A stretch of DNA of 64,000 nt from Escherichia phage AV124, in the sequence record OR352954; one strand, written 5' to 3'. The position numbers and the translations under genes are program-made. The notes beneath the pieces are model-generated. The model did no database searches. It saw nothing but the letters and a program-made list of their open reading frames with translations, and was not told the origin of the DNA. Below are positions 1 to 32,508 of the stretch, one piece after another. Each line of letters opens with the position of its first letter. The first letter of the stretch is position 1.

Positions 1-473
1 CCTTCTCATATGACCCTGAGACAGGTTTGTTTACTTGTATCAATCCTCTCGCTCGTCGTCATTTTGGTAAGGTTGCAGGCACAAAAAGGAAAGATGGGTA
101 TATACGCCTCGGTGTTAAGGTAAGCGGCAAGCTGAAAATGTTTCTCGCGCATAGGGTTGCCTGGGCTTTTTATCACGGTGTGTGGCCTGATGGCCTTATT
201 GACCATAAAGACTGGGACAGACAAAATAATAAAATAGACAATCTCAGGGTTGTTGACAAAAGCACAAATAATTATTATTATTCCCCTTGGAAAGGGAAGT
301 CACAGACAGGTTACAGGGGTGTTAGGATAGATAAAAGGAGAAATCCTCCCAGATATCAAGCTATTTTCTGCGACACTCATCTTGGGATGTTCTCTACAGC
401 AGAAGAGGCATATGCTTGCTATCAAAAGTATGTTATGAAGACACAGGAGATTATCGCAGATGCTGAAATATAA
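1..473 (+). CDS. HNH homing endonuclease with AP2-like C-terminal motif; 5' partial (start lies upstream of window)
   Basis: Reading frame open from window edge; 'HRVAWAFYHG...DHKDWDRQNNKIDNLR' HNH-type motif, 'GYRGV' AP2-like motif. Confidence 0.55.
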   Translation, partial: FSYDPETGLFTCINPLARRHFGKVAGTKRKDGYIRLGVKVSGKLKMFLAHRVAWAFYHGVWPDGLIDHKDWDRQNNKIDNLRVVDKSTNNYYYSPWKGKSQTGYRGVRIDKRRNPPRYQAIFCDTHLGMFSTAEEAYACYQKYVMKTQEIIADAEI

Positions 474-951
474 AGTTGGTGATTTGATTAAAGCTATTCA
501 AGATGGTGAAGTAAATGTTTTTGGTCATGGTTGTAATTGCTTTGTGACTATGGGTAGCGGGATCGCCCCGTTGATCAAAGAAGCATTCCCTAAGATGTAC
601 GCTGCCGACCTGAAAACTGAGAAGGGCGACAAGACCAAGCTGGGAACCTGTACAATGGCCTTTTTGAATGATGGGTCTCTCGTAGGATTTAATCTGTACT
701 CACAGTACGGTTATAATCGCCGCAAACAGGGTCTCAGGGACCTTGACTACAATGCCCTGTATGATTCAATGGTTGAAATGAAAAAGCTCTTACAGAGCTA
801 TACAGACGGCCCTATGGACACCTATCGAATCGGGTTCCCTAAACTAGGTGCTGGGCTTGCAGGGGGTGACTGGAATGTCATCGAAGCAATGATCAAATCA
901 ATCTTCTTTGATTGTGATGTAACTGTGTACATTCTGCCGGAGAAAAAGTGA
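460..951 (+). CDS. macro-domain (ADP-ribose binding/processing) protein
   Basis: 'GDLIKAIQDGEVNVFGHGCNCFVTMGSGIA' and 'IGFPKLGAGLAGG' resemble macro-domain Gly-rich loops (cf. YmdB/MacroD). Confidence 0.55.
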   Translation: MLKYKVGDLIKAIQDGEVNVFGHGCNCFVTMGSGIAPLIKEAFPKMYAADLKTEKGDKTKLGTCTMAFLNDGSLVGFNLYSQYGYNRRKQGLRDLDYNALYDSMVEMKKLLQSYTDGPMDTYRIGFPKLGAGLAGGDWNVIEAMIKSIFFDCDVTVYILPEKK

Positions 952-1120
952 TGACAGAAAAGAAAAACCTACACCCTGATACTGCATATGATCGTATTGT
1001 TGCGGCAATTCGTGCAATCGACCCGAAATTGGTAGACGCCCTTGACAGAAAGGATGCCCTCAACGATATTAATGATGCTTGCTATGAAGTTTTATGGCAA
1101 GATTGGATGGGGGATGATGA

Positions 1121-1330
1121 ATGATTGAACTTAAAGACGGCATGGTGGCCCACACCAAGAAGATCGACCTTCACGTTGGTAACACAGTGTTTACATACAA
1201 TGCACCACGAGGAAAGAGCTTTGTTGTTCTTCTACTTGGCGTAGAGAAGCCGGATGGTCAAGGAGAAGGTATTCAGATTGACGAATGGCTGAATAGTCGT
1301 GGCTGGAAGCTGGAGGGTCCTGATGAGTAA
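1121..1330 (+). CDS. hypothetical protein
   Basis: ORF track; start overlaps upstream gene. Confidence 0.3.
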   Translation: MIELKDGMVAHTKKIDLHVGNTVFTYNAPRGKSFVVLLLGVEKPDGQGEGIQIDEWLNSRGWKLEGPDE

Positions 1331-1541
1331 ATCGGTTTTTGTCATCTATGACACTGTTGACAAATGCCTCTGGAACCACAAAGCCAAGATTGGGTGGATT
1401 AGTTCCGGCGCGGCGAAGAACGCCTGGAATCTTGCCCACGCAACCTGGAGTGGGAAGCAGTATTTTGATGACCAGCAAAGATATGTAGTTCTTGAGCTTT
1501 CTGGCGGACACGTTAGTAAATTATTTGAGGAGAATAAATGA
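1323..1541 (+). CDS. hypothetical protein
   Basis: ORF with ATG at 1323 overlapping upstream stop (ATGAGTAA); translationally coupled small early gene. Confidence 0.3.
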   Translation: MSKSVFVIYDTVDKCLWNHKAKIGWISSGAAKNAWNLAHATWSGKQYFDDQQRYVVLELSGGHVSKLFEENK

Positions 1542-1894
1542 CCATGAATGAATCTGTAGATTCTGCAACCACCCCAATGATCGGTGGTAAGATTTACGCT
1601 GGCGTTATCATCAACGCCCGTCCGTTTGTGGAGGTATGGCCCCGTTGTATTTGTGGTTATCTGGCTGGCAAGGATCATCACAACCGAGGGTTTGATAATG
1701 GCCCTATTCGTACCTCCACGGTGCAAAGCCTGCTGCTGGAGAATGGTAAGCTATTCGCCATCACACTGAATAGCGCTTATCGCCTAGAATCTGTAGATCT
1801 GGCAGCTTTTCTTAATTGTCCTGGGTGGTTCGATGACCTTGATAATTTGATCACTCAGGCTGTAGCTCCTAAAAAGGGGGTGTCCATTGACTAA
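1538..1894 (+). CDS. hypothetical protein
   Basis: ORF track, 118 aa, start overlaps upstream stop. Confidence 0.4.
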   Translation: MTMNESVDSATTPMIGGKIYAGVIINARPFVEVWPRCICGYLAGKDHHNRGFDNGPIRTSTVQSLLLENGKLFAITLNSAYRLESVDLAAFLNCPGWFDDLDNLITQAVAPKKGVSID

Positions 1895-2930
1895 ACCAAT
1901 TAAATACCCAAGCACCGCACAGTTCCGTCAGGTTATCCGCACCATGCATGATAAACTGACGTTCGACGGTCTTGATGAAGAAGGCAATATCAAGCGTAAG
2001 GTTTTGCCACCGGACGCATACTTGATCCCGTACATTGGTACGGTTAAGCTCCACGGCACAAATGGTAGCGTGGTATTCCACTCTGAGGATGAAGTTGTCT
2101 TCCAGTCCAAAGAGCGTGTCGTTACTGTAGGTGACGATAACAATGGCTTCGCGGCTTTCATGTCTCGAAAAGACACCTCAGAGCTGCTTTCCCAGGTTAA
2201 ATACCTGTGTGAAGTCAATGAAGTTGAGTTCCAGTTCCCGGTTGAAATTGCTGGTGAATGGGCTGGTCGCGGCATTCAGAAAGGTGTTGCCATCACTGAA
2301 GTAGAGCCATTCTTTGCTATCTTCCGTGTGGCTGTAGGCCGGGATGAGGCGACGGATACCCTCAACTGGCTACCACCAACGTTCCAGTTTGGAATGGGAT
2401 TGCCGGATGCTCGTATCTACAGTATCCTTGACTTCGGTTACTGGATGGCTAATATCCCATTCAATGAGCCAGAACTTGTCCAGAATGACTTGGCAGAACT
2501 GACTCGTGAAGTGGAAAACAAATGCCCGGCAGGTAAGTTCTTTGGCGTAGAAGGTATCGGTGAAGGCATTGTCTGGTCTCCAAAAGATCCTGAGCTTTCT
2601 AAAATCTCTGGTCTGTGGTTTAAAGTCAAGGGTGATAAACATTCTGTATCCAAAGTTAAGACCCTGGCAGCGATCGACCCAGAACGCCTCGCAAGTATGC
2701 GTGAGTTCGTTGAGTACGCTGTGACGGAAGCACGTCTTGAGCAGGGTGTTAGCGAAGTCGGTCTTGACCAGACTAAGATTGGTGAATTCATTGGATGGAT
2801 TAACCGAGACATCAACAAGGAAGAGGGTGATGTTCTGGAAGCCAGCTCCATGACCATGAAAGATGTTGGTAAGTTTATCAGCAACAAAGCTCGTGCATGG
2901 TACATGACTCGTCTGAGTGAGGAGGGCTAA
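1887..2930 (+). CDS. ATP-dependent RNA ligase, Rnl2-like
   Basis: Nucleotidyltransferase motif I 'VKLHGTN' (cf. T4 Rnl2 KIHGTN), 'EGIVWSP' and 'FKVKG' downstream motifs; N-terminus 'KPIKYPS'; TTG start after GGGGG SD. Confidence 0.7.
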   Translation: MTKPIKYPSTAQFRQVIRTMHDKLTFDGLDEEGNIKRKVLPPDAYLIPYIGTVKLHGTNGSVVFHSEDEVVFQSKERVVTVGDDNNGFAAFMSRKDTSELLSQVKYLCEVNEVEFQFPVEIAGEWAGRGIQKGVAITEVEPFFAIFRVAVGRDEATDTLNWLPPTFQFGMGLPDARIYSILDFGYWMANIPFNEPELVQNDLAELTREVENKCPAGKFFGVEGIGEGIVWSPKDPELSKISGLWFKVKGDKHSVSKVKTLAAIDPERLASMREFVEYAVTEARLEQGVSEVGLDQTKIGEFIGWINRDINKEEGDVLEASSMTMKDVGKFISNKARAWYMTRLSEEG

Positions 2931-3112: not shown

Positions 3113-3278
3113 GTTTAAAGTCGGGCAGACAGTCAAAGATACCTGGAGCGGCAAGGTTGGCCCTATTTCCACCATGTACTTTTCAGAAGGAGACCAGTAC
3201 AACAAGGCAGAATGGGCATATTCTATAGACCATATCGGGTGGTTATTCCATCCAGAGTCTGACTTGGAGTCGGTGTAA
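3093..3278 (+). CDS. hypothetical protein
   Basis: ATG at 3093 in frame of track ORF 3015..3278. Confidence 0.25.
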   Translation: MVRPEPKFKVGQTVKDTWSGKVGPISTMYFSEGDQYNKAEWAYSIDHIGWLFHPESDLESV

Positions 3279-3697
3279 TGGGTCTTCGTGAATACTTAGC
3301 AGTCAAATTAAAACATGCAAAGGGGCAATCTATGGTTAAAGTGAATGGTAATACCATCACGATCAACGGGAATACCGTCGTTAATGGTGACATCATTGGT
3401 GGAGACTTGAGTATTTCTGCAAATGGGGATAAAATCCTCATCAACGGAAAAGAGGTCTATACCACTTCTGATAAAAACATTACCGTAGTCATCCACGGAA
3501 ATACAGGAAGCATAAACACCACATCTGGTGGTGTGAAGGTGTATGGCACAGCAGGTAATGTTAAGACTGTTTCTGGTGATGTCCGTATCGAAACAGGGTC
3601 ACTTGCAGATGTGACTACCGTCTCAGGAGATGTTATAGCAGAAACCATTGAAGGTAATGTGAAAACAGTTTCAGGAGATGTTTCTCACCGTCGTTGA
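3278..3697 (+). CDS. beta-solenoid repeat protein (DUF4097/bactofilin-like repeats)
   Basis: Tandem degenerate repeats 'VKTVSGDV' / 'GNTITINGNTVVNGD'; alternative start ATG 3332 with AAGGGG SD. Confidence 0.4.
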   Translation: MGLREYLAVKLKHAKGQSMVKVNGNTITINGNTVVNGDIIGGDLSISANGDKILINGKEVYTTSDKNITVVIHGNTGSINTTSGGVKVYGTAGNVKTVSGDVRIETGSLADVTTVSGDVIAETIEGNVKTVSGDVSHRR

Positions 3698-13933: not shown

Positions 13934-16306
13934 ATTAAAGGTCTGTTTATACTGGATAACGAGGCCGATGGCCTGTTAGACGAAGTAACTAAGTACCATT
14001 GTACTTTGCTGAAAGAATTCGGAGTCAACAACTGGAACCTGTTTTTAGACCCCGCACACCCTGAATATGAAAGCGCTGTAGCCTTTGCCAGGAGCAAGAA
14101 GGATGCTAATCTTACAATTCGTTCATACGACGAGCTGGAAAGCTTCCTGAAGACTTGTAGAGCCATTGCGTGTCACAACCTGTTTGGTTATGACCTGCGC
14201 CTGTGGAAGAAGTTATCGGGCATTGAATATGATATGTTCAAAGACCCGAAGTGCATGGGGACGATTGGGGATACACAGGTAAATCTCTACGACACCCTCT
14301 CTATGAGCCGTGTGCTTTATCCTGACCGTCCATTACCTAACGGTTGCCCTGACTCTGTTCTTAACCCGGTAACCGGGAAGCGAGACCGTGTAGGTCCTCA
14401 TGGCCTGTTGGCCTGGGGCTACCGCGTAGCAAACAAGAAAGTTCAGATCGATGACTGGCGTAACCAACCCTTGTGGGAATACGTTAATCGTGTCTGGGAA
14501 GACGTTTTAATCAACGAGTTAGTATGGCAATCCCTGATCGATGAATCTACAGGTGCTCGCTGGCCTGATGACAAGCAGTTCATGTACAAAGATAAACCGG
14601 AAGGGATGCGGCAGATCAACTGGAAGAACGCGCTACGCCGCCGTATGTTGACTGATTACCTGATGATTGAGCAAGAAATTCAGGGTGTTCCATTCAATAA
14701 GCATGAAGCTGAAAAGCTGAGAGACCGTATTGATGTAATGATGAAAGAGATTGAGGAAGAAGTAGAACCTCAACTCCCGCTCAAAGAGATGACGAAGTCT
14801 CAACAGCCAAAATTCCCTGCTAATCCTTTTGATGGTGCAGGAAGAATTTCCCATCACGGGTGGAATTGGTTAGAATACAAGCTGGGATATCCAGTTAATC
14901 GTGAAGCGCTGGAATTCAAAGGTCCACCGAAGACGGCGTTTAAAGGTAACGGTGATGTAAGTGCAGCAGGGGAAAGATACTGTATCCAGAATGGTGTTGA
15001 AGACCCGGCAGCGATGCCAGACTTCATTAGAAGCCAGATAAAGAAAGAGAATACCCTTGTCCCATTGCCACCAGACCTAATGGAAAAGGCAATTGCCGAT
15101 CTTCGTGCTGGAAAGATGCCAGACCTGATGGTTCCGATGAAGATCTCGAACCAGGACGACATCAAGAAGTACCTGATCCGCGATGCGGGATGGAAACCAA
15201 CGCTCTGGCGTGTTAAAGATGTGACGAAAGACCAGTTCAAAAAGACCCGCGATGATGCGGAGGTTGATGGTCTGGTGCGTAAGTACATCGAAGAACTTGG
15301 AGAGTCCGAGTATAAATCTCTGATTCTTGAGCACTTAAATAATAGTGACGCAAAGTTCAATATCTCGGAAAACAAGTTCGACCATCGTCATGGTTCTGAT
15401 CGTGTTTACGAGGAGGTCTTCAAGAAGTTCCGACGCAAAGCTCGTCAACTGCCGACTTCACCACAGTTGAAGGATAACTTTGGCAAGCTGTGTCCTAACC
15501 TTGAAGTTATCGATGTTCACTTGGCTAAACAGATTGTTAAGTGGCTGTCATTACGTAACCGTCGTTCTGTTCTCGACCCTATTGACGAGGATAAAAACGA
15601 TACAGGGCTGTTGAATCATCCTCGCCTGGCGATTGATGGAAAACTTCCAGCTCGTTTCTCTGGTATCACTAACACCGGGCGTTGTAAGCACACCATTTGT
15701 GCAAACATGCCTAAGCCAGATCCTAAGGTGTTGTTGGGTAAAGAGATGCGTGGTCTCTGGGGTGTGACCGATGAATATTACCAGGTCGGTATCGATGGTT
15801 CTAACCTCGAAGGTATGATCGCGGCATGGGGTGCATATCAGTTCGATGGTGGTGAATACCTCCGTATCATGGAAAGTGGAGATGCCCACGCACGAAACGC
15901 CGAGGCATACACCAAAGCTTCTGGTACTCTGGTAACGCGTAACGGTGGTAAAGGGGTAACCTACGGCATCATGTATGGTGCTCAGGCAGCTAAGATTGCA
16001 GCAATGCTTCACATTTCCCTTGACAAGGCACAGGCGGTAATCGATGCTTTCTGGGATAGTAACTTTGGTTTGAAAGGTCGTAAGGAATGGCTTGAAAACT
16101 TCTGGGAAGCAACGGGTAAACGTTATATCCCTGGTCTCGATGGTCGTAAGATTTGGACCCGTTCTAAGCACTCTCTTCTGAATGCTTTCCAGCAAAACGG
16201 TGGTGCATCTCTATTCGATCTGGTTGGTATCCTGCTTCACTGGGAACTGATCAAACGTGGCTGGTATGATGATGACGTTCGTCGCCTGATTTACTACCAT
16301 AAATAA
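13934..16306 (+). CDS. DNA polymerase, family A, T7 gene 5-like; N-terminal segment (3'-5' exo + motifs A and B), ends just before motif C
   Basis: Exo I 'FILDNEADGLLDEVTKYHC' (cf. T7 'IVSDIEANALLESVTKFHC'), 'GPHGLLAWGYR', motif A 'GIDGSNLEG', motif B 'KGVTYGIMYGAQ'; no ATG/GTG/TTG between upstream TGA (13919) and Exo I, so start set at ATT 13934 after AGGAGG. Confidence 0.75.
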   Translation: MKGLFILDNEADGLLDEVTKYHCTLLKEFGVNNWNLFLDPAHPEYESAVAFARSKKDANLTIRSYDELESFLKTCRAIACHNLFGYDLRLWKKLSGIEYDMFKDPKCMGTIGDTQVNLYDTLSMSRVLYPDRPLPNGCPDSVLNPVTGKRDRVGPHGLLAWGYRVANKKVQIDDWRNQPLWEYVNRVWEDVLINELVWQSLIDESTGARWPDDKQFMYKDKPEGMRQINWKNALRRRMLTDYLMIEQEIQGVPFNKHEAEKLRDRIDVMMKEIEEEVEPQLPLKEMTKSQQPKFPANPFDGAGRISHHGWNWLEYKLGYPVNREALEFKGPPKTAFKGNGDVSAAGERYCIQNGVEDPAAMPDFIRSQIKKENTLVPLPPDLMEKAIADLRAGKMPDLMVPMKISNQDDIKKYLIRDAGWKPTLWRVKDVTKDQFKKTRDDAEVDGLVRKYIEELGESEYKSLILEHLNNSDAKFNISENKFDHRHGSDRVYEEVFKKFRRKARQLPTSPQLKDNFGKLCPNLEVIDVHLAKQIVKWLSLRNRRSVLDPIDEDKNDTGLLNHPRLAIDGKLPARFSGITNTGRCKHTICANMPKPDPKVLLGKEMRGLWGVTDEYYQVGIDGSNLEGMIAAWGAYQFDGGEYLRIMESGDAHARNAEAYTKASGTLVTRNGGKGVTYGIMYGAQAAKIAAMLHISLDKAQAVIDAFWDSNFGLKGRKEWLENFWEATGKRYIPGLDGRKIWTRSKHSLLNAFQQNGGASLFDLVGILLHWELIKRGWYDDDVRRLIYYHK

Positions 16307-17275
16307 CATTGTGGCTTTGTGAGGTAACTCACATCGAATAACTCCTTTAATTGCTGGGAGGCTAAGGTTGATATTCACTCGATAATAGAGTAAAATACAA
16401 CTATGTTAATCAGCAGCGAAGAGGATCAATGAAAAGTGTAAACTACCACGGATATGTGGTTTACGAAGACGGAACCATTATCGGAAGGCGCGGGAAACCG
16501 ATGCAAAAGGTAGATAATGGGAGGGGCTACCTAATTGTAAGTCTCTACCTTAATAAAAGAACAACGACAAAAGCTGTGCATGTTTTAGTGGCTGAGTGTT
16601 TCGTTCCCAACCCGGATAACCTCCCAGAGGTTGACCACAAGGATGGTGATAAGACCAACAACCACTACACCAACCTCCGCTGGGTAACAAGAGGTAAGAA
16701 CATAGAACATTGCTACACGTTGGAAGGTAGAAGTGCAACAGGTATTGCCAATGCAAACAGTAAGTTGTCAGAGGGAGAAGTGGAGAAAATCTGCTACCTC
16801 TTGCAGGAAGGCTTTAGTCAAGCTGCCATCCGAGACATGGGCTACCCATACGGAACAGTTAGGGCCATCAAGCAGAGACGACAATGGCTGCATATATCAT
16901 CTTCGTATCATTGGTCTTAACGTTCAGAGGCCAGCCGAAAGGCGTAGACGAGCGAGTGCCGTCGAAATGGGGAGCATCCTGAAAAGGATGGTGATATGGT
17001 CCGATCCTACGTGAAAACGTATGGCAACACGTAATGGTGTGGGCGAGATTAACGACCTCGCTAAACTTTTGGATGAATACCAGCTCCAGGTTCCTAAGAA
17101 ATACCTGAAGAAGTGGGAGTTCGACACCCTGGAAGAGGCAACAGCTTTCGTCAAAGAATGGGAAGCAAAAGGCCGGGTATTTGACGGACATGAATGGAGA
17201 AAGGCCGTCAAAGATGACAACGGTGATAAAGTCAAGGATGCGGAAGGCAATACAGTCTACGAAGGTATTTTCGGG
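16301..17275 (+). mobile_element. insertion interrupting the DNA polymerase gene; candidate group I intron carrying an HNH endonuclease ORF (alternative: gene-splitting homing cassette)
   Basis: Polymerase frame stops at 16304-16306 where motif C is expected; conserved C-terminus resumes downstream; possible P1 pairing CCAU(16297-16300)/GUGG(16311-16314); in-frame G-terminated 3' site at 17275. Confidence 0.3.
16429..16920 (+). CDS. HNH homing endonuclease
   Basis: 'VHVLVAECFV...VDHKDGDKTNNHYTNLRWVTRGKN' HNH_3-type motif; C-terminal HTH-like segment. Confidence 0.75.
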   Translation: MKSVNYHGYVVYEDGTIIGRRGKPMQKVDNGRGYLIVSLYLNKRTTTKAVHVLVAECFVPNPDNLPEVDHKDGDKTNNHYTNLRWVTRGKNIEHCYTLEGRSATGIANANSKLSEGEVEKICYLLQEGFSQAAIRDMGYPYGTVRAIKQRRQWLHISSSYHWS

Positions 17276-17419
17276 GACGATGGTAAAATCCACATCCAGT
17301 ATTGCCCTGTTGGTGAAATGGTCGTAAGATGTGTAGAGAAGGCCGCTCGTATCATGGGCAGTCCTGTACATATCACAGGGGCATATCTTACGGGCGCCAA
17401 TTGGGCGCAATGTCATTGA
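17021..17419 (+). CDS. DNA polymerase C-terminal segment (motif C region to C-terminal His)
   Basis: 'IQYCPVGEMVVRCVEKAARIM...ANWAQCH*' matches T7 DNAP C-terminus '...IQVGC..EEIAQVV...NWAICH*'; first ~85 codons lack polymerase similarity. Confidence 0.6.
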   Translation: MATRNGVGEINDLAKLLDEYQLQVPKKYLKKWEFDTLEEATAFVKEWEAKGRVFDGHEWRKAVKDDNGDKVKDAEGNTVYEGIFGDDGKIHIQYCPVGEMVVRCVEKAARIMGSPVHITGAYLTGANWAQCH

Positions 17420-17437
17420 TATATAAGGATATTTTAT

Positions 17438-18073
17438 ATGGAATTATGGAAAGACATCCCCTCTACGGAGGGGAGATACCAAGTAAGTAATTATGGAAGA
17501 ATAAAAAGGCAACGGTATTCTCGCATAAACAGCAATCAAGCAGCAAGTTGGGAGCAAGTATATGAAACAAAGATATTAAAGCCTTCAAAGGACACACACG
17601 GTTACCTACAAGCTTGTTACCTTGTGGAAGGAGAGAGGACTATAGCCCTGGTCCATAGGCTTGTTGCAGAAGCCTTCCTTGCACCGCCAAGTCAAGAGTT
17701 GATAGATGAATGTATGAAGGCTGGTCACAAAGTGGTTCTTGTCAACCACAAGGATGGAAACCCACTTAACAACCATGTTGACAACCTTGAGTGGTGTACT
17801 CCTTCTTACAACAATGAGTATAGTCCCCAAGATTATTCAAATAGGTCTGGGGATAACTGTAAACATGCGGTTCTTAAAGAATCTGATGTTGACAAAATAC
17901 TGGAACTACGTGGTAAAATGAGTCAGCAGGCCATCGCGGATATGTTCGATGTGAAACAGATCACTATCAGCAACATTTTCACCGGAAGGTCTTGGTCTTC
18001 TTATACCGGAATACCTCGCAAAGAGCGTAACAAAGGAAAACGTGCAGCTAAGACCAAACTGTTATCACAATAG
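17438..18073 (+). CDS. HNH homing endonuclease (NUMOD4-like N-terminus)
   Basis: 'WKDIP..EGRYQVSNYGRIK' then 'VHRLVAEAFL...VNHKDGNPLNNHVDNLEW'. Confidence 0.7.
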   Translation: MELWKDIPSTEGRYQVSNYGRIKRQRYSRINSNQAASWEQVYETKILKPSKDTHGYLQACYLVEGERTIALVHRLVAEAFLAPPSQELIDECMKAGHKVVLVNHKDGNPLNNHVDNLEWCTPSYNNEYSPQDYSNRSGDNCKHAVLKESDVDKILELRGKMSQQAIADMFDVKQITISNIFTGRSWSSYTGIPRKERNKGKRAAKTKLLSQ

Positions 18074-21967: not shown

Positions 21968-23056
21968 ATGACGATTACTCGCGGCCTTATCTTCGGGAAG
22001 TTTGCACCCCTGACCAACGGGCATATTGAATTCATTCGCCAGGCGGCTTCGCAGGTTAGTGCTCTGTACCTGTTCCTGTCATATGATCAGAAATTCGTTG
22101 ATGCACAACCAGAATGGATTCGTCCAAAGCTGGGGCTTGCTGATCGTTATCGTGACCTGCTGGATGTTATTGCCGATGAGGGACTTGACAACGTGAAGGT
22201 AGACTACGTTGATGAGTCGAATATCCCAGGATACCCTGAAGGCAGTGCTGCCTATGCAAAACTGATCCGTGAAAAGCAACCGTTCGTTAAGTACGATTTT
22301 GCTTTCTCTTCTGAGCCGGAGTATGAGTCTTACTTCAGTGAGTTCTTCCCTGAAGCGAAGCATGTAGTTATCGACGCAGAACGTAAAGCTGTTCCTATCT
22401 CAGCCACGATGATCCGTAATGATCCGTACAACAACTTCTACAACCTAGCGTGGCCTGCACGTAAGCGCTTCATGAAGAAGGTTGCCATCATTGGTGTTGA
22501 GAGTACGGGCAAGACAACCCTGACAAAACATCTGGCGCATACCTTCGGTGCTGGTTGGATTCCTGAGATCGGACGGCTTATCTGTGAGCGTGAATATCAC
22601 TCCAGTGAGTTCGCAATGTCTCGTGAAGACTACCTGCGTATCGCTATGGAGCACCGCCTGAAGGAGATGGAGTTGGCTGGTTGGGGTGATCGTGGGGTTA
22701 TGTTCTCTGACACCACAAACCTGATCACACACTTCTCTGGTGTTTGTGCTGATAAGATCGACTACGCAGACCTGTTGTTCCGGACACTAAGCCGTGAAGA
22801 GAGCTACAACTTCTATGACCTGTTCCTGCTCCTCACACCAGAGGTTCCGTGGGTTGCTGATCCTCTTCGCTTGCAGGATACACCAGAGAAACGTAAAGAA
22901 ACCCATTCTTTGCTTGACACAATGATCAGAGCATCTTACGATACAAGCAAGGTGGTGGTTATCTCCGGCAGTGATTACGAAGAGCGTACTCAGAGAGCTG
23001 AAGAAGCTGTCCGTAAATTGCTGAATATCAAAGGAGAACAAGATGGATCAAACTAA
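21968..23056 (+). CDS. nadR: bifunctional NMN adenylyltransferase / ribosylnicotinamide kinase, NadR-like (no N-terminal HTH domain)
   Basis: NMNAT motif 'GLIFGKFAPLTNGHIEFI' (cf. NadR 'FGKF.PLH.GH'); kinase P-loop 'VAIIGVESTGKTTL'. Confidence 0.8.
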   Translation: MTITRGLIFGKFAPLTNGHIEFIRQAASQVSALYLFLSYDQKFVDAQPEWIRPKLGLADRYRDLLDVIADEGLDNVKVDYVDESNIPGYPEGSAAYAKLIREKQPFVKYDFAFSSEPEYESYFSEFFPEAKHVVIDAERKAVPISATMIRNDPYNNFYNLAWPARKRFMKKVAIIGVESTGKTTLTKHLAHTFGAGWIPEIGRLICEREYHSSEFAMSREDYLRIAMEHRLKEMELAGWGDRGVMFSDTTNLITHFSGVCADKIDYADLLFRTLSREESYNFYDLFLLLTPEVPWVADPLRLQDTPEKRKETHSLLDTMIRASYDTSKVVVISGSDYEERTQRAEEAVRKLLNIKGEQDGSN

Positions 23057-23468: not shown

Positions 23469-23662
23469 TGGCGATCAAAGTAATCTCCGAAGGTACTCCG
23501 TTTACGGCAACGTGTAAGAGTTGCAGGTCTGTGGTTGAATACAATTACACGGATACCTATGTATATTCCTACACTGTTGCTCGTGGAATGCGGGTAGGTC
23601 ATGGTGCGTACCGCTGCATCACCTGTCCTGTGTGCTCATCAAGGATCAGGCATAATGGCTAA
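23468..23662 (+). CDS. small zinc-ribbon protein
   Basis: 'CKSCRS' ... 'CITCPVC' Cys pairs. Confidence 0.35.
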   Translation: MAIKVISEGTPFTATCKSCRSVVEYNYTDTYVYSYTVARGMRVGHGAYRCITCPVCSSRIRHNG

Positions 23663-24008
23663 GGTGCTCAACTTCTACCACATTGGTAAAGTGATCCCTG
23701 AAAATGCCGAATACATGGGGCGAGCAATGCCCCATCTAGGCCTGAAGCAATCTAAATTCGCTAACCCATATAAGTTGTCGAAGGATGAGCCTCGTGGAGC
23801 CACCATTGAGCGCTATCGCGTGTGGTTGTGGCAACAGATCCGTTCTGGGAAAATTACTATTCAAGATCTTCTTGACTTGGATGGTAAAGACCTTGTATGC
23901 TTCTGTAAACAGCCGAACAAAGAGGTGGCATGTCATTGTGATGTGATACTTGCGGCAATCGAATGGGCAAAACAGAGGAAGACAAATGGCAATTCATGCA
24001 AAAAGTAA
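23655..24008 (+). CDS. DUF4326-family protein
   Basis: 'YMGRAMP...SKFANPYKL...IERYRVWL...LDGKDLVCFCK...CHCDVIL' matches my recollection of the DUF4326 pattern. Confidence 0.5.
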   Translation: MAKVLNFYHIGKVIPENAEYMGRAMPHLGLKQSKFANPYKLSKDEPRGATIERYRVWLWQQIRSGKITIQDLLDLDGKDLVCFCKQPNKEVACHCDVILAAIEWAKQRKTNGNSCKK

Positions 24009-24475: not shown

Positions 24476-24702
24476 ACAAATACTACTTCGCCTTCGGAAT
24501 GAACCAAGAAACGAAGGATGGTATGTCTCTCGGTAATTACTACGTCTGCATCGAAGCCAAACACCATTACGATGCCAGATTTGAGATGTTCGATGCTCGT
24601 GGCAGTTCTTGGTCTTTTTGCTACACAGAAGAAGAATTTGCTGGACAACCAGAAAAATATGGATTAAAGTCTATTTCGTTAGACGAAGTTCGTATCCGAT
24701 AA
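24472..24702 (+). CDS. hypothetical protein
   Basis: ORF track, 76 aa. Confidence 0.35.
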   Translation: MNKYYFAFGMNQETKDGMSLGNYYVCIEAKHHYDARFEMFDARGSSWSFCYTEEEFAGQPEKYGLKSISLDEVRIR

Positions 24703-24722
24703 ACAATAGGAGAAAAGATTAC

Positions 24723-25424
24723 ATGATGAATCTATACGTAAAAACAACCTGGACAGACTTCTATGGTTGGACAAAACTCGAATACCTTTGGCTTCTAATC
24801 TGTTCTGCATCCATTGCAACGGTCTCTATCGTTACAGGTGGTACGGTGGTGGAGTTTATTTCCTCCGTCACAGGCATCGTCGGTGCGATTCTGGTTGCGA
24901 AAGGTAAACTTTCCAGCTACTATTGGGGCTTCATTGCCACGGTTCTGTATGCATATATCTCTTTCACGTACAAGTTGTACGGTGAGACGATTATGTACAC
25001 CCTGTTGTTCACCCCCATGCAGGTCATTGGCGGGGTGATCTGGGCGCGTAAGTTAACCGTCTCTGCGGATGGTGAGCGTGCGGATGTCATAAAGAAATAT
25101 CTGACCACAAAACAGCGCTGGATTGTTGGTATCGGGACATTGGTGACGATCGGATTATACGCCGAGTTCGTTAGCCTATTGAAAGGAAGTATGCCGGGTC
25201 TAGATTCTGCGACAGCAATCCTGTCAGTTCTAGCAACCTACCTGATGATGGTTCGTTATGCAGAACAATGGCTGATTTGGCTACTGGTGAACACTGTTGC
25301 AATTGTTATGTGGGTACAAGCTACGATTCATCATCAAGGAGCTGGTTCTGCAATTTTGGCTATGTGGGTCACATTCTGGCTCAACTCTCTTTATGGTTGG
25401 TATAAGTGGAGAAAGAATGGCTAG
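24723..25424 (+). CDS. pnuC: nicotinamide riboside transporter PnuC-like
   Basis: ATG 24723 after AGGAG; polytopic membrane protein ~233 aa with PnuC-like C-terminal 'WLNSLYGWYKW'. Confidence 0.7.
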   Translation: MMNLYVKTTWTDFYGWTKLEYLWLLICSASIATVSIVTGGTVVEFISSVTGIVGAILVAKGKLSSYYWGFIATVLYAYISFTYKLYGETIMYTLLFTPMQVIGGVIWARKLTVSADGERADVIKKYLTTKQRWIVGIGTLVTIGLYAEFVSLLKGSMPGLDSATAILSVLATYLMMVRYAEQWLIWLLVNTVAIVMWVQATIHHQGAGSAILAMWVTFWLNSLYGWYKWRKNG

Positions 25425-31234: not shown

Positions 31235-31708
31235 TCAATGAGTGAAGAATGGTAATGCCCTGGCAATCACCAACAGGCTTATGACAGTTGCAGTTTTTAT
31301 CCATTCCTTTATCGTCGTGTCTTTAAAATTTGCACAAAGTATGATAATTTCCATCCAAGTTTGGTAGGAAGAATTTATTACAAAATCAAAGAGTCCGGGG
31401 ATTATTAACGGAAACTGCATGGATATTATCTGGCAGAAGAGAATTGGCACTGCTACAGAGAGTGTTAGCTTTTTCTTCCATCCCGATAATATACACGCAG
31501 CACCAAAGATAAAAGAGATATCTAGGAACCAACATAGATTAAGGTAAAGAGATAGATCGAAAAACTGGGTGTTTGAAGAAAACCACCATAGGAGGGTATT
31601 CTCAAGAAAGATATGGACCATGCCAAAAACAGACATGATCCTTATACCTTTGTCAGAATGAAACAACAAAATAATAAAGCACAGAAAATAGAATACTGAG
31701 CTTATCAT
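31235..31708 (-). CDS. polytopic membrane protein in an AT-rich segment
   Basis: 157 aa with at least 4 hydrophobic helices; local GC visibly lower than flanks. Confidence 0.4.
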   Translation of the reverse strand: MISSVFYFLCFIILLFHSDKGIRIMSVFGMVHIFLENTLLWWFSSNTQFFDLSLYLNLCWFLDISFIFGAACILSGWKKKLTLSVAVPILFCQIISMQFPLIIPGLFDFVINSSYQTWMEIIILCANFKDTTIKEWIKTATVISLLVIARALPFFTH

Positions 31709-32019
31709 TTTGCGGATCTTTCCATTAACATCTGGAATTGCTTGGTGAGGTCTGTTCTTAAATCACCAACATCTCCCTTGATGTCCCTTCTAAGATCGGA
31801 AACATCATCCCTAATCGCTTTTAGCTTTTTATCTAAGATATCATCCAGCTTTTCTTTAGTGACCATTTCGGCCCTTATACGGATGATATCTTTGTCAAGC
31901 TCATCAAGGCGCTCTTGAGTCTTTTTGTAATCCGAGTACGTTATTCTTAGGACTCCGATCAGGACAAAGGTAATAACCCCCCAGACCGCCTTCAGGATAG
32001 CAAACAGGTCAATAGACAT
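31705..32019 (-). CDS. membrane-anchored coiled-coil protein (i-spanin-like architecture)
   Basis: N-terminal TM 'LFAILKAVWGVITFVLIGVL' then charged heptad-like region. Confidence 0.35.
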   Translation of the reverse strand: MSIDLFAILKAVWGVITFVLIGVLRITYSDYKKTQERLDELDKDIIRIRAEMVTKEKLDDILDKKLKAIRDDVSDLRRDIKGDVGDLRTDLTKQFQMLMERSAK

Positions 32020-32028
32020 AGTGCCCCC

Positions 32029-32508
32029 TTAGGCTGTCTGCGGAAGCTCTGGTTGAGGGTCTCCCTTGGTCCATCCTCTGAGATCGATGATATATTTCTT
32101 CATTGTCTCAACCTTATCTTCTTCACCCAGTGCAGCGTAAGTTGATAGCAGTATCGCGGCCCTTTGGAAAAGTCCTTGTTTCTTATTTTCAAAGATTCTG
32201 TCTTCCATCCACTCCACTTTTTCGAACTCTTCACCGTTAAAGATATGAGTTCTATTAGAGAAATCACTTGGGAGAGAATCTACAAGACGAAAGTAACAAT
32301 CTTCCGGGAAGAATTTGGTCGGGTCCGTATCTGCCATATAGACCTGACCGTTAGAATCGTATTGAATATATAGGCCTTTTTGTTTTTCTTTTAATTGAGA
32401 TACAAAATCGTACCAATCTTGACCGTTCTCATCTTTTAGATATAAGGCGCCAGGAACCGCAACCTTTTCTGGAGAATATCTAACCCATTTCATATCAGTT
32501 ATTTTCAT
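32029..32508 (-). CDS. putative tail fibre assembly protein
   Basis: Start overlaps stop of upstream fibre gene (TAATG); position and size typical of Tfa chaperones. Confidence 0.35.
   Translation of the reverse strand: MKITDMKWVRYSPEKVAVPGALYLKDENGQDWYDFVSQLKEKQKGLYIQYDSNGQVYMADTDPTKFFPEDCYFRLVDSLPSDFSNRTHIFNGEEFEKVEWMEDRIFENKKQGLFQRAAILLSTYAALGEEDKVETMKKYIIDLRGWTKGDPQPELPQTA

Follow-up and report, generated by a model that had tools for sequence, protein, structure and literature searches.

Two phage relatives of the gene treated here, from T4 and PhiKZ, have been studied experimentally. In T4, tk.4 is the single gene depleted on a DarTG2 host; its clean knockout sensitises the phage to DarTG2, and it was renamed adfM (anti-DarT factor Macrodomain) in 2025 (bioRxiv 10.1101/2025.11.20.689424). 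The same preprint reports genetics only, the enzymatic removal of ADP-ribose (ADPr) having been deduced there. Beside AdfM, T4 also has the NADAR protein AdfN, which acts against DarTG1 (PMC11825919). In PhiKZ, gp104 (AdfM) removes thymidine-linked ADPr (T-ADPr) from DNA in vitro and shields chimalliviruses from DarTG2 (PMC13309987). Here we describe a macrodomain gene of Escherichia phage AV124, found in a stretch of 64,000 nucleotides (record OR352954; hereafter the window, to whose positions all coordinates refer unless stated otherwise), and place its product, by its predicted active site, with T4 AdfM and the bacterial protein SCO6735.

Within the ALC1-like macrodomains, SCO6735 and BT1257 make up a subclass (PMC9411070). 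SCO6735 is a proven thymidine-ADPr DNA hydrolase, faster on DNA-dT-ADPr than DarG or TARG1, and it rescues DarT toxicity in E. coli and S. coelicolor. Its Gln85 sits where the catalytic lysine of DarG (K80) and of TARG1 (K84) sits, and the mutants Q85A and Q85E are inactive. Moreover, it cleaves protein ADPr too, its loop lysines contribute to DNA binding, and an inactive mutant still inhibits DarT through binding (PMC9411070).

Identification of the macrodomain gene

The initial annotation, made from the letters of the sequence alone, had placed a macro-domain protein at 460-951, and this protein is real. The gene and the signals preceding it are as follows.

460..951, + strand: macrodomain gene with ATG start, 163 amino acids (aa) plus stop; stand-alone, ALC1/TARG1-like, homologous to T4 Tk.4/AdfM
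445..449, + strand: Shine-Dalgarno-like AGGAG, 10 nucleotides (nt) 5' of the macrodomain ATG, read from the sequence
253..281, + strand: sigma-70-like promoter match (TTGACA-17-TATTAT, 11/12), a consensus match only, inside the upstream HNH gene and about 180 nt 5' of the macrodomain start

The promoter match is weak evidence, as the search returned 12 sites against 7.9 expected in shuffled sequences. The stop codon of the macrodomain gene overlaps the start of the next small open reading frame (ORF).

The score against Pfam PF01661 (Macro) is borderline (21.5 bits, E=2.4e-4, with a gathering cut-off of 22 bits) because the subclass is divergent from the Pfam seed; the orthologue of Klebsiella phage KNP2, 93% identical to the window protein, reaches 22.6 bits. 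Despite this, the assignment is firmly supported by PHROG 335 (E=3.8e-61), by solved structures and by modelling. A search with the single sequence matched the solved macrodomains BT1257, Poa1p, Mycobacterium tuberculosis DarG and TARG1, and a profile of 31 family sequences against PDB matched BT1257 (1.6e-21), SCO6735 (5E3B; 4e-17), TARG1 (3.5e-15), Poa1p (4e-11) and DarG (1.8e-9). The AlphaFold2 model (predicted local distance difference test, pLDDT, 94.4; predicted template-modelling score 0.89) has the three-layer alpha/beta/alpha macro fold with glycine-rich ADP-ribose-binding loops. When T4 Tk.4 was compared with the whole window by tblastn, the macrodomain gene was the sole significant match (460-900); the search showed no second macrodomain gene in the window.

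The protein's C-terminal end is variable among close relatives. In the window and in Salmonella phage GEC_vB_MG it ends in '...VTVYILPEKK' at 163 aa, whereas the proteins of KNP2 (region 31584..32195 of that genome) and Proteus phage Mydo run 40 residues further (203 aa, '...EWEIPGYYPPDDGPLTSEQ...'). In the window this extension is replaced by an ORF of 58 aa (948/951..1124) that is absent from KNP2. A short 'E-x-E-I-P' tail is present in many members of the family.

Active-site residues and subclass

The catalytic residues were mapped onto SCO6735, a check that had been proposed together with the profile search, and H23, N26 and Q82 all found their counterparts. The codons concerned are:

526..537, + strand: H23-G24-C25-N26, predicted substrate-binding/catalytic loop, equivalent to H24-V25-C26-N27 of SCO6735 and, at the asparagine, to N22 of Thermus aquaticus DarG and N23 of PhiKZ AdfM
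691..705, + strand: N78-L79-Y80-S81-Q82, with Q82 at the position of SCO6735 Gln85, that is, of DarG Lys80 and TARG1 Lys84
706..747, + strand: long 'mobile loop' of 14 residues, Y83..D96, that separates Q82 from Y97 and bears R87, R88, K89 and R93
847..867, + strand: glycine-rich diphosphate-binding loop G130-A-G-L-A-G-G136, followed by the invariant W138

The hidden Markov model (HMM) alignment to SCO6735 (5E3B) is free of gaps in the critical regions, and the numbering fits after a tag offset of 20 residues. It gives the equivalences H23=H24, G24=V25, N26=N27, S33=K34 and Q82=Q85 (window protein first). The equivalence of glutamine and lysine is based on this alignment and on the published structure-based one (PMC9411070), and not on a superposition of our own. 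A MAFFT alignment with DarG and TARG1 was dropped for this purpose, as it mis-registers the region after strand beta-5, where the loop lengths differ.

In the family alignment, which includes T4, the residues N26, G34, K60, G62, N78, Y80, Q82, Y97, P127, G130, G132, G136 and W138 are invariant and H23 is nearly so. A census of relatives extended this to 80 viral loci, which represent 38 lineages at 60% identity. Glutamine occupies the catalytic column in 76 of the 80; N26, N78, Y80 and W138 are invariant, H23 is present in 74, and the glycine-loop residues G130, G132 and G136 together with W138 are kept in 73-80. The loop after the glutamine mostly has 11 or 14 residues. An active enzyme under purifying selection would be expected to show such conservation.

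BT1257 and SCO6735 are also the closest neighbours in sequence and structure. The mobile loop is long (14 residues) and basic as in SCO6735, yet SCO6735 K34 aligns to S33. By its closest neighbours and its residues H23, N26 and Q82 the window protein falls in the ALC1/TARG1-like class and there in the BT1257/SCO6735 (Gln-type) subclass, and it is very probably an active ADP-ribosyl hydrolase of that type.

Proposed role and alternatives

We favour, and regard as rather likely by analogy with the described homologues, a role as an orphan enzyme of antitoxin-like kind, which would remove DarT2-type ADPr from single-stranded phage DNA. Expressed from the genome's non-structural arm, the protein would bind, as its substrate, the ADPr set by a DarT2-type toxin of the host on thymidine of single-stranded phage DNA. 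N26 and Q82, together with the glycine-rich loop G130-G136, would hold the distal ribose and the diphosphate in place, and the N-glycosidic bond would then be hydrolysed via an activated water, and not by a catalytic lysine, restoring replicable DNA. The basic loop (R87, R88, K89, R93) may help to hold the DNA. Direct inhibition of DarT through binding, as with the inactive mutant of SCO6735, is also possible. That the protein is enzymatically active, that its substrate is DNA-thymidine and that it counters DarTG2 in this phage we infer from homologues at 24-36% identity. The suggestion of the initial annotation that the protein could counter DarT-like toxins is supported by its homology to T4 AdfM and SCO6735.

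Several points weigh against this role. The identity to T4 AdfM is only 36%, and there the protection from DarTG2 is known from genetics while the mechanism itself is inferred; the biochemically proven PhiKZ AdfM is very distant (21% identity, E=1e-3). The K34 of SCO6735 that corresponds to S33 here is important for activity on DNA. SCO6735-type enzymes also cleave protein-linked ADPr, so that other substrates could exist beside DNA or even outweigh it. Finally, the macrodomain gene lies less than 2 kb from NadV in 7 of the 38 lineages, which could indicate processing of NAD/ADPr metabolites instead.

Two other explanations concern the substrate. The protein could be a general eraser, removing mainly the ADPr that other ADP-ribosyltransferase (ART) toxins of the host set on proteins or RNA, or tuning the marks of phage ARTs, without being specific for DarT2. 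Glu-linked protein ADPr is cleaved besides dT-ADPr by both SCO6735 and TARG1, T4 carries a macrodomain homologue and encodes the ADP-ribosyltransferase Alt, and some host ART defences, such as CmdTAC, target RNA. However, the window yielded no ART gene, and SCO6735 showed activity neither on guanosine-ADPr RNA nor on 2'-OH ADPr RNA; we therefore consider this explanation unlikely.

We think it similarly improbable that the protein is a hydrolase of small molecules, as its usual 'phosphatase' label would have it, which would act in housekeeping for RNA repair and NAD+ salvage on ADP-ribose-1''-phosphate from Tpt1/KptA-type RNA repair or on O-acetyl-ADP-ribose from a phage Sir2. The homology to Poa1p, an RNA ligase 2 (Rnl2) gene only 0.9 kb from the macrodomain gene, the tendency of the family to adjoin NadV (the 7 of 38 lineages compare with 0-2 for control genes) and the occurrence of NAMPT-NADAR-Macro-SIR2 islands are all in keeping with such a function. 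Nevertheless BT1257 and SCO6735 are nearer than Poa1p in sequence and structure (1e-21 vs 4e-11), and linkage to Rnl2 exists in just 3 of the 38 lineages. Tpt1/KptA is neither annotated in KNP2 nor seen among the window ORFs scanned (annotation and Pfam scans, ORFs longer than about 110 aa only). Nick sealing of the Rnl2 type leaves no 2'-phosphate, which also counts against the RNA-repair version. In KNP2 the Sir2, NadV and Prs genes are more than 60 kb from the macrodomain gene, and in the window NadR and PnuC are 21 kb away; moreover, anti-defence islands would be no less likely to cluster with NadV.

The initial annotation had also proposed the countering of ADP-ribose-based defence signals such as those of Thoeris, by degrading or sequestering gcADPR (glyco-cyclic ADP-ribose) or His-ADPR (histidine-ADP-ribose), but although the macro domain of ThsA binds His-ADPR, so that such binding is possible for macro domains, and phage macro domains have been predicted to target diffusible ADPr derivatives, we found no positive evidence for it and the ThsA macro domains are structurally distant, which makes this part very improbable.

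Genome context and NAD+/ADP-ribose genes

The first 6.5 kb of the window are 92-93% identical to the genomes of the Mydovirus phages KP12, KNP2 and BIS47 of Klebsiella and Mydo of Proteus, and the window is that of a Mydovirus-like Vequintavirinae phage, a myovirus of the Klebsiella/Salmonella type. The macrodomain protein is also 93% identical to that of the Seunavirus phage GEC_vB_MG. Downstream of its gene follow four small ORFs, Rnl2 (1887..2930), a SleB-type cell-wall hydrolase, rIIA, rIIB, a Pif1-like helicase, a DnaB-like helicase and the DNA polymerase. Other genes relevant to the discussion are:

3278..3697, + strand: repeat protein of 139 aa, PHROG 3163 (unknown function), all-beta repeat model with pLDDT 59
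21968..23056: NadR-like bifunctional enzyme
23601..24008, + strand: DUF4326 gene (Pfam E=4e-18), between the NadR-like gene and PnuC
24609..25424: PnuC

The macrodomain gene had been described as belonging to the same block as a NAD+ salvage module. NadR and PnuC are indeed present in the window, but they lie 21-24 kb from the macrodomain gene. The DUF4326 gene is a candidate for an additional part of that module; DUF4326 belongs to a rhodanese-phosphatase clade, often occurs as a fusion with Macro, NADAR or SLOG domains and is predicted to remove ribose-linked phosphates from ADPr derivatives (Iyer et al.). A NADAR gene similar to T4 AdfN was not found in the window by tblastn, which is insensitive here, given that the NADAR protein of KNP2 has no BLASTP similarity to T4 AdfN.

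The whole genome of KNP2 contains a set of NAD/ADPr genes: NadR, PnuC, NadV, phosphoribosyl pyrophosphate (PRPP) synthetase, a metallophosphoesterase, Rnl1, Sir2, NADAR (Pfam 1.1e-34), the macrodomain gene and Rnl2. They are scattered over the genome and not clustered. The Mydovirus lineage has, like T4, a NADAR gene as well as a macrodomain gene. In other lineages the Gln-type gene is found closer to such functions: besides the proximity to NadV, Prs lies within 10 kb in 8 of 38 lineages (raw counts, 0-2 lineages for control genes). In one contig NAMPT, a Nuc_deoxyribosyltransferase-like gene, NADAR, an ORF of 62 aa and Macro are consecutive and are followed by SIR2, NMNAT and Prs. In about a quarter of the lineages the Gln-type genes are inside NadV/Prs/NADAR/Sir2 islands.

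The labels 'Sir2', 'DNA ligase' and 'NADAR' that stand under the macrodomain match in OY757067.1 (Klebsiella phage vB_Kpn_K23PH08C2) were discarded and the RefSeq record of KNP2 was used instead. The annotation of OY757067.1 is apparently shifted in its coordinates, as most coding sequences are pseudo or partial and rIIA and Rnl2 are unlabelled where the sequence has them. The names under its macro-Rnl2-rIIA region belong to genes that are placed elsewhere in related genomes.

A local pair of an ART and the macrodomain was also considered, as the GEC_vB_MG homologue of the protein encoded by 3278..3697 is labelled 'ADP-ribosyltransferase'. This label is unsupported and the pair was rejected because the protein has no ART profile, PDB or fold evidence: no PDB match was obtained, and the Pfam matches were weak, sub-threshold and none of them to an ART family.

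HNH endonucleases and mosaic surroundings

Immediately upstream of the macrodomain gene there is a homing-endonuclease gene.

1..473 (27..473 within it), + strand: HNH homing-endonuclease gene of the free-standing kind, truncated at the edge of the window (HNH_3 E=5e-15, PHROG 99 E=2e-35), whose 3' end overlaps the macrodomain start by 14 nt

This neighbour had been taken as a sign that the macrodomain gene is mobile. The HNH gene does adjoin it, but the two are independent: in Mydo and KNP2 the macrodomain gene directly follows a small "exonuclease" ORF without an HNH gene between them, whereas in GEC_vB_MG and in the window the HNH gene is inserted exactly between these two. For the HNH allele of the window, 11 phage records gave matches, all of them partial (coverage of at most 46%), while the adjacent macrodomain region shows 90-95% identity in over 30. 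Since the HNH gene is variable or absent in the relatives and the macrodomain gene is conserved in place, the HNH gene and not the macrodomain gene is the mobile element. The surroundings are mosaic, the HNH gene being an independent mobile element and the macrodomain gene a stable syntenic resident, and mobilisation of the macrodomain gene by the site-variable HNH gene was rejected. Segments 930-1121 and 1539-1885 of the window are indels relative to KNP2.

Among 50,697 phage records there was no full-length, near-identical match to the HNH gene; just its 5' 94-211 nt match, with 79-94% identity, and the HNH genes hit by these partial matches lie at different places in the genomes. This pattern suggests a mosaic or recombinant homing endonuclease.

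Other features of the window were observed. The ORF at 1538..1894 (+ strand, 118 aa) is absent in KNP2, owing to an indel, and present in GEC_vB_MG; it matches PHROG 16099 'methyltransferase' (E=1e-47) without a Pfam match and the label is doubtful. The DNA polymerase gene (13934..17419, + strand) is apparently split by a free-standing HNH gene. On the window, the contiguous 905-aa polymerase of KNP2 aligns with residues 1-790 at 13934..16300 (98%) and residues 781-905 at 17051..17416 (90%); these pieces are separated by an HNH ORF (16429..16920), and a further ORF, of the NUMOD4-HNH type (17438..18073), comes after them.

Distribution and annotation

Homologues of the macrodomain protein were found by tblastn in 2,951 of the 50,697 phage records (about 6%). 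The carriers include T4-like phages, where the gene is tk.4, next to vs, as well as rV5-like, Felix O1-like, Vi01-like and Pakpunavirus phages. Macro domains have been reported in 41% of myoviruses (Iyer et al.). The family is usually labelled "phosphatase", and in the records of close relatives the gene is annotated "putative phosphatase". It is a conserved, syntenic and already annotated, though mis-named, member of a very large phage family and is ordinary for this window. What was already known is the function of one member of the family, that of T4, assigned in 2025. The macrodomains of Klebsiella phages had already been labelled DarG-like by HHpred (2023 study), and nothing on phage macrodomains as counter-defence is contained in the CmdTAC paper, the Migulavirinae/Thoeris preprint or the PaoP5 Dap2 paper.

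If these proteins were recognised as probable anti-DarT2 orphan antitoxins, thousands of genes would be annotated more correctly, and it would become easier to predict which therapeutic phages of Klebsiella, Salmonella, Proteus and Cronobacter can overcome hosts bearing DarTG2.

Comparison with described macrodomains

SCO6735 (PDB 5E3B) and BT1257 (2AFC/2FG1) resemble the window protein in the glutamine at the lysine position and in the loop length class, but the identity is only 24-27% and K34 of SCO6735 is replaced by S33. Moreover these two are cellular proteins, of Streptomyces coelicolor and Bacteroides, respectively, that are induced by DNA damage, whereas the window protein is encoded by a phage.

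DarG (T. aquaticus 5M31/5M3E, M. tuberculosis 5M3I) has the catalytic Lys80 where the window protein has Gln82, and it is a protein of about 330-340 aa with a C-terminal DarT-binding domain, whereas the 163 aa of the window protein consist of the macro domain only. Against the NCBIfam DarG model (NF048014) the window protein scores 36.8 bits (cut-off 250), and the match is confined to the model's N-terminal macro part. No darT gene lies beside the macrodomain gene, whose neighbours in the window are the HNH gene, the small ORFs and Rnl2, nor was DarT found next to the macrodomain gene in two relatives examined on long contigs. Since it lacks the catalytic lysine, the C-terminal DarT-binding domain and an adjacent darT, the protein is orphan-antitoxin-like and not a member of the DarG family proper. 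Human TARG1/OARD1 (4J5R) works with a Lys84/Asp125 dyad that is absent from the window protein, and yeast Poa1p (6LFQ-6LFU), which acts on ADP-ribose-1''-phosphate, is a weaker match to the window family than BT1257 and SCO6735.

Like the window protein, T4 Tk.4 is a phage macrodomain that stands alone, has about 155-163 aa and belongs to PHROG 335. The two are 36% identical over 150 residues (E=2e-28) and have in common the motifs H-G-C-N-C, F-N-L-Y-[ST]-Q (N-x-Y-x-Q) and G-A-G-x-x-x-G-x-W. Among 5,027 models of defence systems the DarG profile was the only match for both, weakly in each case (6.6e-11 for the window protein, 1.3e-9 for T4 Tk.4). They differ in the loop after Q82, which in the window protein is basic and 6 residues longer, and in gene order, which is exonuclease-like ORF, HNH, macro, small ORFs and Rnl2 in the window and tk.1-3, tk.4 and vs in T4.

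PhiKZ AdfM is another phage-encoded single macrodomain in PHROG 335 with the same proposed job. However, it is Lys-type and DarG-like (K78; DarG profile 4.4e-39; 9e-25 to M. tuberculosis DarG), whereas the window protein, at 21% identity to it and without the lysine, and T4 AdfM are Gln-type. Judged by these residues and profiles, the window protein groups with T4 AdfM and SCO6735 and not with PhiKZ AdfM or DarG proper. Because T4-type AdfM and the window protein carry the SCO6735-type glutamine and lack the lysine of DarG, the AdfM proteins of T4 and PhiKZ probably use different chemistry. What is new here is that the Gln-type, SCO6735-like nature of T4-type AdfM and of the window protein implies two mechanistic lineages under one name. 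As a tentative and rather speculative extension, one lineage would be Lys-type and derived from DarG (PhiKZ), and the other, far more widespread and free of the lysine, would be Gln-type (T4 Tk.4, the window protein and thousands of myoviruses); the Gln-type proteins could be broad erasers of ADPr on DNA thymidine and on proteins, maybe freeing ADP-ribose for the reconstitution of NAD+ by the phage. If true, this would join the reversal of ADP-ribosylation and the replenishment of NAD+ in one counter-defence module.
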